Assembly: GCA_965238005.1 (NCBI GenBank)
Contig: OZ250165.1
Span: 4,256,001 to 4,320,000 of the forward strand
From: Longimicrobiales bacterium
GTDB taxonomy: Bacteria; Gemmatimonadota; Gemmatimonadetes; Longimicrobiales; Gaopeijiaceae
Length of the DNA stretch: 64,000 nt
Direction of reading: 5' to 3'
Part shown: positions 4,200 to 11,089 of the stretch, one piece after another
Position numbering within the stretch: position 1 is the stretch's first letter
How the letters are laid out: each line of letters begins with the position of its first letter
Notes under the pieces: generated by a model
Databases searched by the model: none
Told to the model about the DNA's origin: nothing
What the model saw: the letters and a program-made list of their open reading frames with translations, nothing else
Made by a program: the position numbers and the translations under genes

Positions 4200-4565
4200 C
4201 TACGCTCTGGGAGGTCTCTCGAGGAGAGTGGGGTATTCCAGGGGTGGGTCGGACGGTCCGGTGACTGAAGCCACCATGCGCCTTTGAGGTTCGGGTGGGA
4301 TCTGGAAAGAGGAGGCCGCCGGGCCGGCGTGCGGTACCCCGCATCCGTCCATGGAACAGCACTCTATCGACGAAGCGGCCGGCTGTAGAACCGTATTCCC
4401 GGCATCGGCCATCATGCCCATTTCGTGGACGTCCATCCCCATCCGGCCTAGGACCGTACAGATTCCCGGCCCTGAATAGGGTAGGACCATAGCCGCCAGA
4501 ATGAGCAGGGCGAAGGGCCTTGATCGAGAATGCCGTTGCTTCGCGATGGGGTGGATGCCTTCCAT
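4200..4565 (-). CDS. Small DUF2946/CutF/CruR-like leader protein (signal, Met/Cys-rich, Pro-rich C-terminus)
   Basis: Hydrophobic N-terminus, MGMDVHEMGMM, CCSMDGCG, ends LLERPPRA; directly upstream of the tolC-cusBA operon. Confidence 0.6.
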   Translation of the reverse strand: MEGIHPIAKQRHSRSRPFALLILAAMVLPYSGPGICTVLGRMGMDVHEMGMMADAGNTVLQPAASSIECCSMDGCGVPHAGPAASSFQIPPEPQRRMVASVTGPSDPPLEYPTLLERPPRA

Positions 4566-4679
4566 AATGTGCACAACACCGCACGGCGGGTGGGTGTTCC
4601 GGGCTTGCCCTCCGACATCGAGGGCAACCTTTCGTGTCTGAGCGATTGTCTTGGCGGGCAAACTCCACATCTCCAAATC

Positions 4680-5450
4680 CTACGTCTTGATTTTGTAGCC
4701 GCGTTTGAACAACCGAACGTTCACACCGAAAAGAAACGCTCCGAGAATGAAGACGAGGGCCATGCTGAAAGGGACGTTGACATCAGAGACGCCCAGAAGC
4801 CCATACCGCATCCCGTTAATCATGAAAAGCAGGGGGTTCAAGACGGAGACAGTCTTGAGGAGGTCTGGGAGCATGTGGATGGAGTAAAACACCCCACCCA
4901 AGAAGGTGAGAGGAGTGAGCACAAAGCTGGAAAAGGTTTCCACGTGGTCGAACGTCTCCGCCCAGAGTCCCATCATCAACCCAATAGAGGAGAAAACCAG
5001 GGACACGAAGAACATGAAGTACACGAACACGAAAACGTTGGCCATTCCGACGGGAATAAAGAGGAACGAGACTAGCAGGGTAAGGATCCCCACGACGAAT
5101 CCTCTCATTACGCCCCCCAAAGTGAGCGCCAGTACCATTTCGAAATAAGAAAGGGGGGCAGTCAGTAATTCGGTGATATTGTTGAAGAACTTGGATATGA
5201 GTAGGGATAGGGAGGAATTGAAGTAGGAGTTCGTGATCACACTCATCATGATCAAGCCTGGGATCAGGAACTCTATGTACGACAGTCCATTTACCTCCGG
5301 AATCTGCGAACCGATGAACTTGCCGAACACGATGATATAGAGAACTGAGGAGATCACCGGCGCAACAATGGTCTGCGTGGTGGATTTGGTGAACTTCTTG
5401 GTTTCTCGGCCCAGCAGAGTCGCGAATCCCCTATAATTCGCCACGACCAA
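4680..5450 (-). CDS. ABC-2 type transporter permease (YadH-like)
   Basis: QTIVAPVISSVLYIIVFG, YIEFLIPGLIMM, LTPLTFLGGVFYSI, NPLLFMINGMRYG. Confidence 0.9.
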   Translation of the reverse strand: MVVANYRGFATLLGRETKKFTKSTTQTIVAPVISSVLYIIVFGKFIGSQIPEVNGLSYIEFLIPGLIMMSVITNSYFNSSLSLLISKFFNNITELLTAPLSYFEMVLALTLGGVMRGFVVGILTLLVSFLFIPVGMANVFVFVYFMFFVSLVFSSIGLMMGLWAETFDHVETFSSFVLTPLTFLGGVFYSIHMLPDLLKTVSVLNPLLFMINGMRYGLLGVSDVNVPFSMALVFILGAFLFGVNVRLFKRGYKIKT

Positions 5451-6357
5451 TCTCCGTTAAGTCGATAAAGATGTCCTCCAGGTTGGACCTGGTCACTTCC
5501 TCCCTTTTTACCTCGAGTCCCGCTTTCTCGACATCGCGCAGTATTTCTGCCTTGCTGGCGTGCTCCTCACAGACGATTCGGATCTTGTTGTCATCCAGCA
5601 GGAACGCTTTGTATTTCGCGAGCGGTTGAGGGATGGCTTCTATCGGTTTTGTGAGCGTGATATCCAAGCTGGTCTTGTGTAGCTGCTCAAGCAGATTGTC
5701 CTTGTCATCAAGCGCAATGATGTGTCCGTGGTTGATGATGCCGATTCTCTTGGCTAATCGCTCCGCCTCCTCGATGTAGTGGGTCGTGAGCAGGATAGTG
5801 GTGCCTTGCTTGTTCAACTCCTGCATATGACGCCAAAGGCTGCGCCGCAGCTCCACATCGACACCAGCGGTAGGCTCATCAAGAATGAGGAGTTGGGGAT
5901 TGTGTACGAGGGCTCTTGCGATGAGCAGGCGTCTCTTCATCCCACCAGATAACTCTCTGACGTGCACTTCCCGTTTGGAGGCAAGATCAAACTGGTCCAG
6001 TAGCTCATCCACCCGTTTGTTCGCTTCACGGCGCCGTATGCCGAAGTATCAAGCATAAAACCGCAGAATCTCAGCCACAGTGAAGTAGTCGTCAAAATTG
6101 AACTCTTGTGGCACGAGACCAATTAATTGCCTGGCTTCCCGGTACTCCCCGACGACATCCTTCCCGAAGACCTTGACTTCCCCGTCTTCATAGGTGGTAA
6201 GGCCAGCGAGGATATTGATCGTCGTGCTTTTGCCGGCTCCGTTCGGTCCCAGGAACCCAAAAAACTCCCCGCCCTTCACCTCCATGGAGAAGTTGTCCAA
6301 CGCCCGCACGTCTCCGTAGGACTTGGTCAGTTTCCTGATGGATATTGCAGGTTCCAT
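5431..6357 (-). pseudogene. ABC transporter ATP-binding protein (YadG-like) with one in-frame TGA at 6049-6051
   Basis: Walker A GPNGAGKST, signature LSGGMKRR and LDEP are all in one frame; reads FYA*YFGIRRREA where Gly (AGYFG) is expected. Confidence 0.85.
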
Positions 6358-6389
6358 AGGCAAAGTGGCTCATCGTGAGTCACGGTGTC

Positions 6390-8192
6390 CTACCCCGCGC
6401 AGCACGACAGCTTCGCTACATCCTTGTCGAACGCCTGCGCCGCAAGCTTGATTCCCTCGGACAGCGTGAGGTAGGGATGGAACACCGATGTGAGGTTCTC
6501 GATTGTGAGTCCGAACTGGACGGCGAGGGCCAGCTCGGTAATCATCTCGCCCGCCTCGGAAGCCAGGATATGCGCTCCGACGATCTTCCGTGTGTTCGCG
6601 TCGGCCACGAGCTTGACGAAACCACGCGTGTCGCGCGCCGCAAGCGAGCGCGGCACATGCTCCAGCGGTAACTCTGCGGTCACTGGCTCCCTTCCCTGGA
6701 ACCCGATCTCCTCTTCCGTGAACCCGACCGACGCCACCGCTGGATCCGTGAACGTGACCTTGGGCAATGCTGTGAGATCGAACGGCACGGTATCGCCTGT
6801 GAGCGCGTTCTCGGCGGCTATCTTCCCGCCTAACGCCGCGACGTAGACGAACATTGGCTCACCCGTGACGTCACCGGCCGCGTAGATGTCAGGATTCGCG
6901 GTCTGAAGGTATTCGTTCACGGCGATCTCGCCCTTCTCCCCCAGGGTCACACCGACCTCATCGAGTCCGAACCCCTCGGTGTTGGCGCGCCGGCCCGTGG
7001 CCACCAAGAGCTGCTCGGCCATCAAGGTGCTGGCGCCGCCGTCCTCGCTGAAGTGTACCGTGTAACCCTCGTTCCGCTCGACTCGCTCGATCGTCACTCC
7101 CGGGTGGATTTGCATTCCCTCGGCTGCCAGATACTCGGCCAGCGCGTTCCCTATTGCCGCATCCTCGGCAGGGACGATCCGCGGCAACGCCTCGAGTACC
7201 GTGACCTGCACGCCGAGTCGCAAGAACATCTGGGCCAGCTCGAGCCCGACCGCGCTGGCTCCGATCACGATCAGCGAGGACGGCAGCGTTTCCAGAGCCA
7301 TGGCTGAGGTGCTGTCCAGATATCCCGCCTCCGCGAGCCCCGGTATCGGCGCCGCCCAGGGGGATGCCCCGGTGGTGATGACAAGCTTTCCAGCGGTGAC
7401 CTGGCGCCCGTCAGCCAGGGTGATGGATGTGCCGGAGGTCACCGTTGCCCGTTGCTCGAACAGGGTCACCGCCTCGTACGACTGCAACACGTCGCGATAC
7501 TTCGTCTCACGCATTCCGGTGACCAGTGCGTCTTTGTGATCCCGCACAACTGGCCAATCCGGCTGGCCGTCCGTGGCGGCAATGCCCTGGAACGGGTGAT
7601 GGGTGCGGCGGTGGTTCGCTTCGGCCGCGCGGATCAAGGTCTTTGACGGCACGCACCCCACGTTCACACAGGTGCCCCCCAAGGTACCCAGCTCGGCCAT
7701 CGCCACCCGGGCGCCCAGCTCCGCACCCTTGATCGCGGCGCCGAAGCCCGCCGACCCACCGCCGACGATCACGAGATCGAAGTCACCGTCTCCCCGCGAG
7801 ATTGGCGTGATCGCACCGCGATCCGACCCTGCCCGGATGAAATCACCAACCCCCTCCATCGCCTCGGTGCCCTTTAAGCGCTTGATGTAGTAATCAGGGG
7901 CCTTCAGGAACACTTCTCGGCAATACGGACAACCGCAATAGGGGACTTCCTCTCCGGCGTACTCGAACGTGAAGGTCAACTCTGGTGTTTTTTCCGCTAA
8001 GCAGGTCGGGCATACCACCAGATCCTTGATGCGTCGGACGTGTTGCTCGGGGTCAGGGGCGAACTCGTCGGCGCAATCCTGGCAACAGAAATAGTGTTCG
8101 GTGCCGTCGTGACTGTATGTAGCCGCCTTCTCTTTGCTGATTCCCAGTCTGACCAGGGAACAGCCGCAGTAGGAGCAAATGAGCGTTTTCAT
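6390..8192 (-). CDS. merA: Mercuric reductase with N-terminal tandem TRASH/YHS domains
   Basis: GGGSAG FAD site, GGTCVNVGCVPSK redox centre, HPYLT, C-terminal KLSCCAG; N-terminal CSYCG..YFCCQDC..CPTC..YCGCPYC. Confidence 0.93.
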   Translation of the reverse strand: MKTLICSYCGCSLVRLGISKEKAATYSHDGTEHYFCCQDCADEFAPDPEQHVRRIKDLVVCPTCLAEKTPELTFTFEYAGEEVPYCGCPYCREVFLKAPDYYIKRLKGTEAMEGVGDFIRAGSDRGAITPISRGDGDFDLVIVGGGSAGFGAAIKGAELGARVAMAELGTLGGTCVNVGCVPSKTLIRAAEANHRRTHHPFQGIAATDGQPDWPVVRDHKDALVTGMRETKYRDVLQSYEAVTLFEQRATVTSGTSITLADGRQVTAGKLVITTGASPWAAPIPGLAEAGYLDSTSAMALETLPSSLIVIGASAVGLELAQMFLRLGVQVTVLEALPRIVPAEDAAIGNALAEYLAAEGMQIHPGVTIERVERNEGYTVHFSEDGGASTLMAEQLLVATGRRANTEGFGLDEVGVTLGEKGEIAVNEYLQTANPDIYAAGDVTGEPMFVYVAALGGKIAAENALTGDTVPFDLTALPKVTFTDPAVASVGFTEEEIGFQGREPVTAELPLEHVPRSLAARDTRGFVKLVADANTRKIVGAHILASEAGEMITELALAVQFGLTIENLTSVFHPYLTLSEGIKLAAQAFDKDVAKLSCCAG

Positions 8193-8291
8193 GCTTCACC
8201 TCGATTAGATGCGTGGCCAATGCGACCAGGCCGATCAGGACCCTTCGCCCGGAGCTCCTGGCTCCGGCTCGGGCCTGAGCGGGCAGGGCGG

Positions 8292-8633
8292 CTAATCGAA
8301 TTCGTCCAGCCCCGTCACCGGGAGGCTATCGCCAAGCCCCCATGGAAGGAAGAAGCTCAGGCTCAGTGCGTTTCCTGCCGGGAGGTTGCGCCCGGAGATC
8401 GGGACCCTAGCCCCAAGCTCGAGGAACCCTGATCCGATCGGCATGCCCAGGGTCGGAAACACTTCGAGCATGCTCCTGCGAGCGGACGTGAGGGCGCCGG
8501 AGATCCCGTGCGGGACGGTACAGCTCCCCTGAGCGAGGAGGCCCGACGGGGACAAGAGGGCGGGCAGCAGCAAGCAGCCAAGGGCCGCCGTGGTCGCCCT
8601 AGTCGTGACGATGCTCTGCGTCCTCGGCGTCAT
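8292..8633 (-). pseudogene. Probable internally deleted secreted/outer-membrane protein
   Basis: Signal-like LGCLLLPALLSPSGLLAQ joined directly to a barrel C-terminus-like LELGARVPISGRNLPAG. Confidence 0.35.
8599..8624 (+). repeat. 26-bp direct repeat, copy 1 (ctagtcgtgacgatgctctgcgtcct)
   Basis: 25/26 identical to 13552-13577. Confidence 0.8.
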
Positions 8634-9069
8634 GATCGTGATCGGCACCCGGATCCCCTTCGGCCTGATCCCCATCGCCGGACAGGGCCTGACCCTGAAT
8701 GATCTGCTCGACCGTCGCTTCGAAGCCGGTCATCCGCGTCAGCTCACCGAGAAACTCCTCCGGCGAAGTGACGGAGGCGTCGTATACGACCGAGGCCGCA
8801 CCCGATGGGTACGAGACCCTCGCATCCTCGACTCCCTCCACGCGTCGTAGGGCCACACGGGCCGCTGCGGAGCAACCTACTCAGGTCATCCCCGTCACGG
8901 TGAGGTCGGCGGTCACCAGGTTCGGAATGGTGGCGGTCATCTCCTGGGCCGCCATATCCCCCTCACCCTGGCCGGGCATATCCATGTTCCCGTGAGCGTC
9001 GCTCATCAACTGAGACACGACGAGGACGCCCAGGACCGTGAACGCGCCGGCAAGCTCGAGCTTCTTCAT
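8599..9069 (-). CDS. MerP/CopZ-like HMA-domain metal-binding protein with in-frame UGA (candidate selenocysteine) at 8881-8883
   Basis: ORFs 8881..9069 and 8599..8856 are one frame: signal peptide, then LTVTGMT*VGCSAAARVALRRVEGVEDARVSY..A.VVYD (HMA fold), then a His-rich tail. Confidence 0.8.
8847..8880 (-). promoter_or_regulatory. Candidate bacterial SECIS hairpin just 3' of the UGA
   Basis: GUAG...GGCC-CGUGU-GGCC-CUAC; apical loop with GU starts 21 nt after the UGA; the stems are short. Confidence 0.4.
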
Positions 9070-9088
9070 TTCAAGATCTCTCCGTGGG

Positions 9089-9430
9089 TCAGAGTACCCA
9101 GACCGACCACGTCGGATACGTGCCGAATATCACTGCGATCCCAGTCGCCATCCACAGCAGGCTCCTCATCCATTTCCGCGCTTTGGGATCCGCGCACACC
9201 TTGCCGGGCTCACAGGCCATCTGGTCTTCCCGGTAGAGCATGTAGAATCCGGCCCCGAGCATTACGACCGTCGCGATCAGGAAGTAGGGCCTGAGAGGTT
9301 CGAATCTGGCGGAAAGGCCGGCTCCGGATATACCAACGGTTACGGCGAGGAGGGGGCCGGCGCAGCAGAGGGCGGAGGTGAAGGCCGCCCCGACTCCGCC
9401 GACGGCCGTTAAGATCGTCTTGCCTATCAT
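9089..9430 (-). CDS. merT: MerT-family mercuric transporter
   Basis: SALCCAGPLL, FEPLRPYF, CEPGKVC loop, three TM segments. Confidence 0.88.
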   Translation of the reverse strand: MIGKTILTAVGGVGAAFTSALCCAGPLLAVTVGISGAGLSARFEPLRPYFLIATVVMLGAGFYMLYREDQMACEPGKVCADPKARKWMRSLLWMATGIAVIFGTYPTWSVWVL

Positions 9431-9486
9431 CTATCGAGTTCGCTCCTTCGTGTCAGTCAGCCACCGTGCTTGAGAGCATGGGCTAG

Positions 9487-11089
9487 GAGTCTGCGCCGCA
9501 GAAGCACAGCTGACTGAGCCGAATGGTCATCGAGCCGTCCGCGGCGAGGCGGATCCGGGTGATTGGGAGGTTGAGGACTTGTGTCTGCGACGGATCGGGA
9601 GAGCGGAATGGATGCGTTGGGGGGGGGCAAGAGAGCTACGAGAGCCCTCGCGCCGGCAGATGCGGGTGAACCCTCGTGCAGTCATGCCGCCTGAAGGGTG
9701 TGCAGCCGCTTCACATTGAGTGCCAGGCACACGAGGGTCCACTCGGCCCGGACCTTCTCGAGGCCCCGGAAGCTGAATCGTCGAAAGCCCATCACTTCCT
9801 TGATCCAACCGATGGGCGCCTCGGCCTGCGACTTTCGCCGTGCGTAGCGTCTGCGGCCATCTTCGCTCGCCAGCTTCTCCGCCATGCGGACTTTCGCCGG
9901 ATATTCCTCCTTGTCAACCGTGGGGGCGGCCTTGCCCTCCCGGGCCAGCGCCACATACCCGTCGATGTCTCGCTCTTCCAGTTCCTCGAGATCCCGCTCG
10001 TTGCAATAGCCCGTGTCCGCCAGCACCTGCGCCGGCGTCTCGCCGTACGCTTGCGCCACCGCGTCGACCATGGGCACCAGCTGGCCCTGGTCGCTCGCGT
10101 TGTCCGTCACCTCGGCCCCGACCACCAGCTGGTTCTCCCCCTCCACGACCGTCTGTGCGTTGTAGCACTGCTGGAACCCCTCCGAACTCGTCTTCATGAT
10201 CCGGCTCTCAGGGTCCGTGAAGTTGCTCTGCGCCGCCTCGTCCGGCTCTCCGTACTCCCGCTTGTAGGGCCTGCCGCCCTTCGGGTTGCGCGTCTGCCCC
10301 GGCTTGCGGCCCCGTGCGTCGTCCGCCGCTCTCTGCTCGGCTTCCAGGCGCGCCTTCGCCTCCCGGATCGCCGCCAGCCGGTCCTCGCGCCGCTTGAGCT
10401 CCTCCGGCACCTCGTCTCCGCATGCTTCCTCGCCGTAGCGCTCGTCTTCCGCTTCGTCCACCGCCTCGGCCCTCTCCAACAGCCCCCGGATCTCCGCCTC
10501 CAGCCGAGGCTCCCCGGTCACCATCCGGCCGTAGCTCATCGCCTTGCGCTTGTTCGCGTTCGCCCGAACCTTCGTCCCGTCCACCGACACCCTGCCAAGC
10601 CCCGCCAGCCCCAAGGCCCGCGCGAGCATCACCACCTCCACAAACACCGCCCGGAAATCCCCGAGATGGCGCTTGCGGAACTCGCACAGCGTCCGGTGCT
10701 TCGGGAAGTTCTCCGCCGCCAGCATCCGAAACGCGACATCCTCCTCCAGCTTCCTCGCCATCTTCCGCGACGAGAAGGTGCCCGTCGCATACGCGTAGAT
10801 CAGCACCTTGACCATCATCCGAGGGTCGTACGGCGAGTTGCGCCGCCCGTCCCCCCGGTACCGCCCGTAGAACGCGCTCAGCTCCACCGCGTCCACCAGG
10901 TCGCTCACATGGTGCGCCAAATGACCCTCCGACACCCACTCCCGAAGATCCGGAGGCAGCAACAACATCTGCTCCGGATCGTACGGTCGAAATGTCGTTC
11001 CCATTCACCCCCCTCGGTGATCCGCAAGCCTTCCCAATGCCTTCGCTACCACCAAAGATAGCCGCCGCAGGGTTCTGCGGCGCAGACTC
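9487..11089 (-). mobile_element. IS1182-family insertion sequence with 17-bp terminal IRs and CTAG target duplication
   Basis: gagtctgcgccgcagaa (9487-9503) is the perfect reverse complement of ttctgcggcgcagactc (11073-11089); CTAG at 9483-9486 and 11090-11093. Confidence 0.92.
9682..11004 (-). CDS. IS1182-family DDE transposase
   Basis: YDPRMMVKVLIYAY, SSRKM, VDGTKVRANA, TDPESRIM, ADTGY, EAPIGWIK..GFRRFSFRG. Confidence 0.93.
   Translation of the reverse strand: MGTTFRPYDPEQMLLLPPDLREWVSEGHLAHHVSDLVDAVELSAFYGRYRGDGRRNSPYDPRMMVKVLIYAYATGTFSSRKMARKLEEDVAFRMLAAENFPKHRTLCEFRKRHLGDFRAVFVEVVMLARALGLAGLGRVSVDGTKVRANANKRKAMSYGRMVTGEPRLEAEIRGLLERAEAVDEAEDERYGEEACGDEVPEELKRREDRLAAIREAKARLEAEQRAADDARGRKPGQTRNPKGGRPYKREYGEPDEAAQSNFTDPESRIMKTSSEGFQQCYNAQTVVEGENQLVVGAEVTDNASDQGQLVPMVDAVAQAYGETPAQVLADTGYCNERDLEELEERDIDGYVALAREGKAAPTVDKEEYPAKVRMAEKLASEDGRRRYARRKSQAEAPIGWIKEVMGFRRFSFRGLEKVRAEWTLVCLALNVKRLHTLQAA

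Follow-up and report, generated by a model that had tools for sequence, protein, structure and literature searches.

Selenolates bind Hg(II) more tightly than thiolates do and exchange ligands faster, and selenium brings the further advantages of a lower pKa, a softer ligand and easy re-reduction. Selenoproteins of both the HMA type and the MerT type have already been curated or listed. The accessible sections of a 2026 review (PMC13188914) name MerT-family selenoproteins (C/SxxU), a cation ATPase (UxxC) and NF041115, and hold no entry for PF00403, NF045683 or Gemmatimonadota; the accessible part of Haft's preprint likewise mentions MerT-family selenoproteins. Because such proteins stand in those sections of PMC13188914 and in curated models, the gene described here is less new than an earlier, sequence-only reading of this DNA had assumed. 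Two older sources contribute no relative: the GOS "MerP" selenoprotein (PMC2398784, Table and supplementary file 3) is a 33-residue fragment with no HMA motif and so lies outside the present family, and the terms HMA, mercuric and cation-ATPase are absent from Genome Biol 2006 R94 (PMC1794560).

Here we describe a MerP-like gene with an in-frame UGA codon, located in a 64,000-nucleotide stretch of bacterial DNA (the window). The best NCBIfam match of its product is NF041115, "UxxU_metal_bind", in which residues 54-120 align to positions 6-71 of a 74-position profile; the score of 63.5 bits lies below the cut-off of 95, and the motif is UxxC, not UxxU. The MerP equivalog model TIGR02052 gives 39.1 bits against a cut-off of 92.55, and the operon setting is that of MerP, with merT and merA on the same strand and in conserved linkage. 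Against NF045683 (MerT_CopZ_Se), the HMA protein and the neighboring MerT reach 31.5 and 56.8 bits, respectively, where the cut-off is 375. This kind of selenoprotein is already known computationally; the clade to which the window protein belongs escapes the curated models.

A UGA codon at the first metal ligand of an HMA-domain gene

Translated with TGA as U, the gene (Table 1) reads TVTGMT-U-VGC around codon 63, which is the sole internal TGA of the frame. The sequence-only reading had placed the single in-frame stop of 156 codons at the first Cys of the HMA motif and had described an intact HMA fold beyond it. Translation bears out the first point; the second is upheld by the confidence of the HMA-domain model and by the Pfam HMA match (PF00403, residues 56-115, 37.5 bits against a cut-off of 24.8), which spans the TGA. 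In public protein collections, close relatives appear only as C-terminal fragments of 92-102 aa that start just past the UGA, one of them under the name "copper chaperone CopZ". Current annotation truncates the Sec-HMA gene and conceals a putative link of selenium supply to mercury resistance.

Table 1. Coordinates in the window of the gene, its parts and its neighbors, with the homologous Cys-form loci
Feature	Position	Strand	Basis or remarks
Sec-containing MerP-like HMA gene (probable)	8599..9069	minus	156 codons plus TAG stop at 8599-8601; translation, Pfam HMA, orthologues
UGA codon, probably selenocysteine, residue 63, first ligand position of GMT-U-VG-C	8881..8883	minus	Translation; aligned TGA in orthologues
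N-terminal hydrophobic helix, residues 4-25, after MKK	8995..9060	minus	AlphaFold2 helix; hydrophobic segment in all Sec forms
HMA ferredoxin-like domain, beta-alpha-beta-beta-alpha-beta, residues 51-125	8695..8919	minus	pLDDT 96-98
Disordered acidic/His-rich C-terminal tail, residues 126-156, ...DHDHDAEDAEHRHD	8602..8694	minus	pLDDT 55-61
Candidate bacterial SECIS hairpin	8849..8865	minus	Core stem 8860-8863 with 8851-8854 (GGCC/GGCC)
Hairpin loop CGUGU	8855-8859	minus	Outer G-U pair 8865/8849
merT	9089..9430	minus	Directly upstream; Pfam MerT 69.4 bits
merA (mercuric reductase)	6390..8192	minus	Downstream; TIGR02053 550.7 bits, cut-off 454.45
DDE transposase flanking the operon, abutting merT	9682..11004	minus	Pfam DDE_Tnp_1, DDE_Tnp_1_6, DUF772
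Cys-form homologues (GMTCGSC)	loci L051-L065, L068, L069		Same bacterial class

An AlphaFold2 model, built on a 26-row alignment in which U was sent as C, divides the protein into an N-terminal helix, a linker modeled at low confidence, the HMA domain and a C-terminal tail. Residues 4-25 are predicted to serve as a signal anchor or signal peptide. The HMA domain was compared with known structures by Foldseek, which returned 3dxs at a TMt of 0.92 and MerP (1osd) at 0.94 with rmsd values of 0.8-1.1; across PDB HMA domains the model is matched at TMt 0.86-0.94, with the elements in the expected order and the metal loop after beta1. Tails similarly rich in His, Asp and Glu occur in P0002-P0005.

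A second reading frame of 127 aa (8292-8675, minus strand) overlaps the 3' end of the gene. We consider it spurious: it has no Pfam or NCBIfam match, and tblastn found no match to it in 34 related loci. Between the stop of the Sec-HMA gene and the start of merA, a gap of about 400 nt (8193-8598) contains no recognized feature.

UGA-containing and Cys-containing forms make up separate clades

With the read-through protein as query, a GMT-U-xxC homologue at the aligned codon was found in 6 of 41 related genomes. A profile built from six proteins of this kind was then run against 401 sampled genomes of the phylum, and its best full-length matches (E <= 5.6e-33) carried the TGA and the motif in 11 cases out of 11. 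From both searches combined, the full-length orthologues number 15, each from a different genome, and span three families; every one of them has TGA, and not TGC or TGT, at this codon, which settles in favor of the sequence-only reading the point on which homologues could have spoken against it. These proteins, hereafter the Sec forms, retain UxxC in all 15 cases and are 27-46% identical to the window protein. Global reassignment of TGA can be set aside, since a second TGA serves as the stop of 7 of the 15 genes.

Among the 19 loci that follow the Sec forms, 17 are Cys forms (GMTC[GA][SG]C), with TGC or TGT at the ligand codon; the other two (L066 and L067) gave no match in the motif search. 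In a tree of the HMA domain comprising 26 rows, 14 Sec and 12 Cys forms, one branch divides the two with support of 99/96. Because U was entered as C, the Sec or Cys label is not built into the data; six loci with uncertain starts (L047, L052, L055, L059, L060 and L064) were omitted. No TGC or TGT variant was seen within the Sec clade, either among the genomic orthologues or in this tree. The branch leading to the window protein is long and is not adjacent to that of a genome of the same genus (G002).

The two forms differ outside the HMA domain as well. In the Sec forms the hydrophobic N-terminal segment ends in "QIPxHDH" and is followed by a linker rich in His, Met and Asp. Most Cys forms instead end the N-terminal helix with an extra CxxC (for example LCPLC or LCSTC; CxC in one case), which is absent from the Sec forms.

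We also scanned metagenome contigs with the degenerate pattern G-M-T-UGA-x-x-C-A-x-[AT]-A-[RG]. This yielded 56 loci, one of them too short; the other 55 reduce to 45 distinct 54-nt segments, and 43 of these 45 are intact family members with TGA at the aligned codon. We rejected one hit (L169) as a chance match of the pattern. Another (L197) retains GMT-U-TGC-AAAAR and loses the frame after AAAARE, with the 3' arm of the hairpin described below gone; either decay of the copy or a chimeric contig may account for this. Genomic and metagenome sequences together give a Sec-form set of 68, of which 55 are distinct. A corresponding motif scan of genome contigs with Cys codons in the motif recovered generic HMA proteins from many phyla and no Sec forms, the best matches being 44-51% identical over the domain.

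Genome G389 has a further HMA-type reading frame on the minus strand, beyond merT and some 1.5 kb upstream of the Sec-MerP-like gene (L041). An in-frame TGA occupies its first ligand position (GMD-U-SVC), after which the HMA-like frame stays open; this may be a second Sec-HMA paralogue.

The gene is linked to merT in genomes and metagenomes

The linkage seen in the window recurs across the Sec clade. Directly upstream of the gene, merT is found at 13 of the 15 genomic loci, with one further copy at 1.3 kb and one weak match only, and a MerT homologue lies within 400 nt at 51 of the 56 metagenome loci; merA falls inside the 1.5-kb downstream flank at 6 of the 15 genomic loci. Cys-form loci share this setting, with merT nearby in 17/17 and merA in 15/17. 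These associations weigh against the most durable of the alternatives we considered, namely that the gene does encode a selenoprotein and that its role is that of a chaperone for Cu(I) or another soft metal, an organomercurial binder or a redox partner, not the hand-off of Hg(II) to MerT. In favor of this alternative, HMA domains accept several soft metals, the Cu-ATPase domains 3dxs and 6a71 are among the best structural matches, and the protein misses the TIGR02052 threshold for MerP; the His/Met-rich linker and His/Asp tail resemble Cu- or Zn-binding tracts. Set against the tight merT linkage in genomes and metagenomes, the downstream merA genes and the mer setting of the Cys forms, another role is improbable, if the least improbable of the alternatives.

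The flanking transposase and the position of the window protein apart from G002 in the tree suggest that the operon moves horizontally. The N-terminus of the window's merA product (7890-8192, minus strand) consists of Cys-rich, YHS-like modules (CSYCGC…CCQDC, then CPTC…CGCPYC) and has no HMA NmerA domain; Pfam YHS scores 28.0 bits there, under its cut-off of 30.3. At several related loci, merA carries an HMA-type NmerA domain (GMSCSGC, GMTCDHC).

The genome encodes Sec machinery, and a candidate SECIS hairpin follows the UGA

We searched the genome of the window, a single 4.84-Mb contig, for the machinery of selenocysteine insertion. The full set of selA, selB, selC and selD, on which the sequence-only reading depended, is there: tRNA-Sec scored 71.5 bits and was called SeC with anticodon tca by ARAGORN, SelA scored 462.8 bits, the SelB wing domain 49.3 bits inside a 719-aa frame, and SelD 370.9 bits. 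The selD locus (L013, G000:C1:578521-579441) contains one in-frame TGA of its own, which suggests that the selenophosphate synthetase is itself a putative Sec-containing protein.

A short hairpin with a GU-containing loop, which had been proposed to begin 21 nt after the UGA, is present, and the distance fits when the U of UGA is counted as 1. On this numbering, nt 21-24 (GGCC) pair with nt 30-33 (GGCC), core and loop together occupying window positions 8851-8863, while a G-U pair at nt 19/35 closes the stem and a C-C mismatch falls at nt 20/34. Measured from the codon, the stem begins 17-18 nt and the apical loop lies 22-26 nt downstream. The usual apical loop in the description of bSECISearch is said to lie 16-37 nt downstream, with a G in the first loop positions. 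In relatives the hairpin takes a general form in which nt 19-24 pair with nt 30-35, giving a stem of 4-6 bp and a 5-nt loop, CGKGU.

The window's own hairpin folds no better than dinucleotide shuffles (z = -0.27 for a 23-nt piece and +0.49 for a 48-nt piece) and is missing from the MFE structure of the 48-nt piece; the 6-bp hairpin of relatives has z about -2.1. An Rfam scan of 8000-9700 at permissive E-values yielded three chance-level matches, none of them to a SECIS family. When the 48 nt downstream of the codon are folded as a whole, the energies fail to distinguish Sec forms from Cys forms (means of -16.6 and -18.2 kcal/mol, respectively); only the position-specific hairpin tells the two apart. 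Its core stem is fully paired in 15/15 Sec forms against 5/17 Cys forms. Both forms encode a similar peptide here, A-[AT]-A-R-[VLIM]-[AV]-[VL], and since 5 of the 17 Cys forms make the stem too, the conserved A-R-V-A peptide contributes to it.

The signal is clearest at synonymous sites. In the 55 distinct Sec forms, the third-codon columns of the stem (21, 24, 30 and 33) have an entropy of 0.13-0.31 bits against 0.95-1.99 bits at the other 13 third positions, and the same four columns reach 0.98-1.40 bits in the 17 Cys forms. All four core pairs form in 55/55 distinct Sec-form sequences and 94.2% of 330 cells pair, where the metagenome pattern had fixed 5'-arm columns 19 (R), 20, 22 and 23 and left free columns 21 and 24 and the entire 3' arm. 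Covariation is thin, at 3 compensatory cells of 330 (GC to AU twice, CG to UA once), so support comes mostly from invariance, which kinship too can yield among sequences that are related and not independent. On comparison with relatives, not on the window's own fold, we regard the hairpin as a well-supported candidate SECIS.

These data bear on whether the UGA might be recoded to something other than Sec, through near-cognate read-through to Cys or Trp or through regulated termination, in which case a 62-residue membrane peptide would be the main product and the full-length protein would be made only occasionally. The weakness of the window's own hairpin would fit such a scheme, and among the listed runs that contain this stretch none is recorded as RNA. 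Yet the genome has complete Sec machinery, the UGA falls exactly at the metal-ligand Cys and is paired with Cys forms, the synonymous-site freeze at the hairpin is confined to UGA forms and, on the structural model, a 62-residue product would sever the HMA fold after beta1. We judge recoding to anything but Sec to be very unlikely.

Coding constraint continues beyond the UGA

Across the 15 Sec-form genes, mean pairwise differences at the three codon positions are 0.32/0.30/0.58 over the 12 codons before the UGA and 0.34/0.30/0.58 over the 58 codons after it. The correct frame is free of stops for those 58 codons in 15/15 genes, whereas the other two frames contain 0-5 stops. Because coding-type conservation persists 3' of the TGA, decay after a nonsense mutation is excluded. 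The view that an ordinary MerP-like gene suffered a TGC/TGT to TGA mutation within a locally decaying region draws on two features of the neighborhood, the transposase that flanks the operon and an ABC-transporter ATPase gene with an in-frame TGA of its own. The latter agrees with the sequence-only reading, which had reported three other interrupted genes; one, this ATPase with TGA at 6049-6051, was confirmed. Against a pseudogene stand the identical TGA in 15/15 orthologues at 27-46% identity and in 43/45 distinct metagenome hits, the equal codon-position pattern on both sides of an open frame and a Sec clade devoid of TGC/TGT variants, and we hold it to be highly improbable.

The ATPase gene (5431-6363, minus strand; …ILRFYA*YFGIRR…) lies within a low-GC island, where GC content is 49-55% (4500-6500) compared with 61-72% elsewhere in the first 20 kb. 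Its TGA is unlike a Sec codon, since Cys is not expected there, and looks like a nonsense mutation or the mark of a foreign, decaying gene.

We compared assembled contigs at 8881-8883. A contig of the likely source run matches exactly, at a depth of only 2, and a contig from another study's run, at a depth of about 21, is identical over 8806-9046, so that an independent assembly reproduces the TGA on which the sequence-only reading turned. The same run of that other study contains a second contig (X2), diverged by 9%, of whose 18 differences 12 are listed. None of these 12 touches 8881-8883, and this variant probably retains the TGA; a listed difference at 8879 replaces the Val that follows U with Ala. 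For all the low depth of the likely source-run contig, an assembly or sequencing error has a vanishingly small probability given the identical contig of the other study, the same codon in 14 other genomes and dozens of metagenome contigs.

Discussion

We conclude that 8599-9069 is very probably a genuine selenoprotein gene. This is the reading first advanced from the letters of the DNA, and it gains its support from TGA in 15/15 orthologues, from selA, selB, selC and selD, and from the identical TGA in the second-study assembly. With good confidence, we further regard it as the intact MerP-equivalent gene of a merT-merP-merA operon whose UGA codon 63 is decoded as selenocysteine.

A mechanism can be proposed on this basis. 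SelB with Sec-tRNA(Sec) would be recruited by the short hairpin in the coding sequence, and Sec would be inserted at codon 63. The N-terminal helix would anchor or export the protein and thereby place the HMA domain outside the cytoplasm, where a two-coordinate Se-Hg-S site could be formed by Sec63 of the beta1-alpha1 loop and by Cys66, which stands at the N-terminal end of alpha1. Hg(II) captured there would pass to the Cys pair of MerT and on to reduction by MerA. Operon position, together with the predicted topology and fold, points to a selenol-based periplasmic Hg(II) binder that would feed MerT; from gene order only, we infer that MerT and the HMA protein bind each other. A selenium ligand in the first mer protein to meet Hg raises the question of how the metal is released to MerT thiols.

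One selenol and a His-rich tether might even functionally replace the membrane-proximal CxxC pair of most Cys forms and so constitute a distinct design for Hg capture, an idea that we put forward as doubtful. If it holds, these proteins would be a selenium-dependent capture module of higher affinity or faster exchange for Hg(II), perhaps also for organomercurials, and mercury resistance in these probably Gemmatimonadota bacteria would be tied to selenium supply. With 55 distinct sequences, the Sec clade is of fair size; it is tightly linked to merT and offers a clean natural case of a candidate SECIS hairpin inside a conserved peptide, A-A-R-V-A-V, for which the Cys forms are a matched control.

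Comparison with known systems

Like the window protein, NF041115, a family of metal-binding (seleno)proteins, has a small HMA-type domain whose metal motif contains Sec. The window protein differs in having one Sec, not two, and in its N-terminal helix, His-rich linker and acidic tail, and its gene is placed between merT and merA. NF045683 also puts selenium into the Hg-uptake arm of a mer-type system and brings MerT and HMA modules together, as here; in that family the two are fused, whereas here a Cys-only MerT of 113 aa and the HMA protein are the products of separate genes.

With MerP (1osd, 1afi), the window protein shares its modeled fold (1osd TMt 0.94, rmsd 1.1), the position of GMTxxxC and the operon slot after merT, and its export is predicted. 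It departs from MerP in the Sec that probably replaces the first Cys, in an extra tail of 30 residues, and in a hydrophobic helix with a linker of about 25 residues where MerP has a short cleaved signal peptide. The Cys-form homologues have the same HMA core, at 26-35% identity to the window protein over the 12 aligned, and likewise an N-terminal hydrophobic segment. They carry their own Cys ligand and mostly the extra CxxC or CxC, and only the Sec forms have the His-rich "QIPxHDH" linker.
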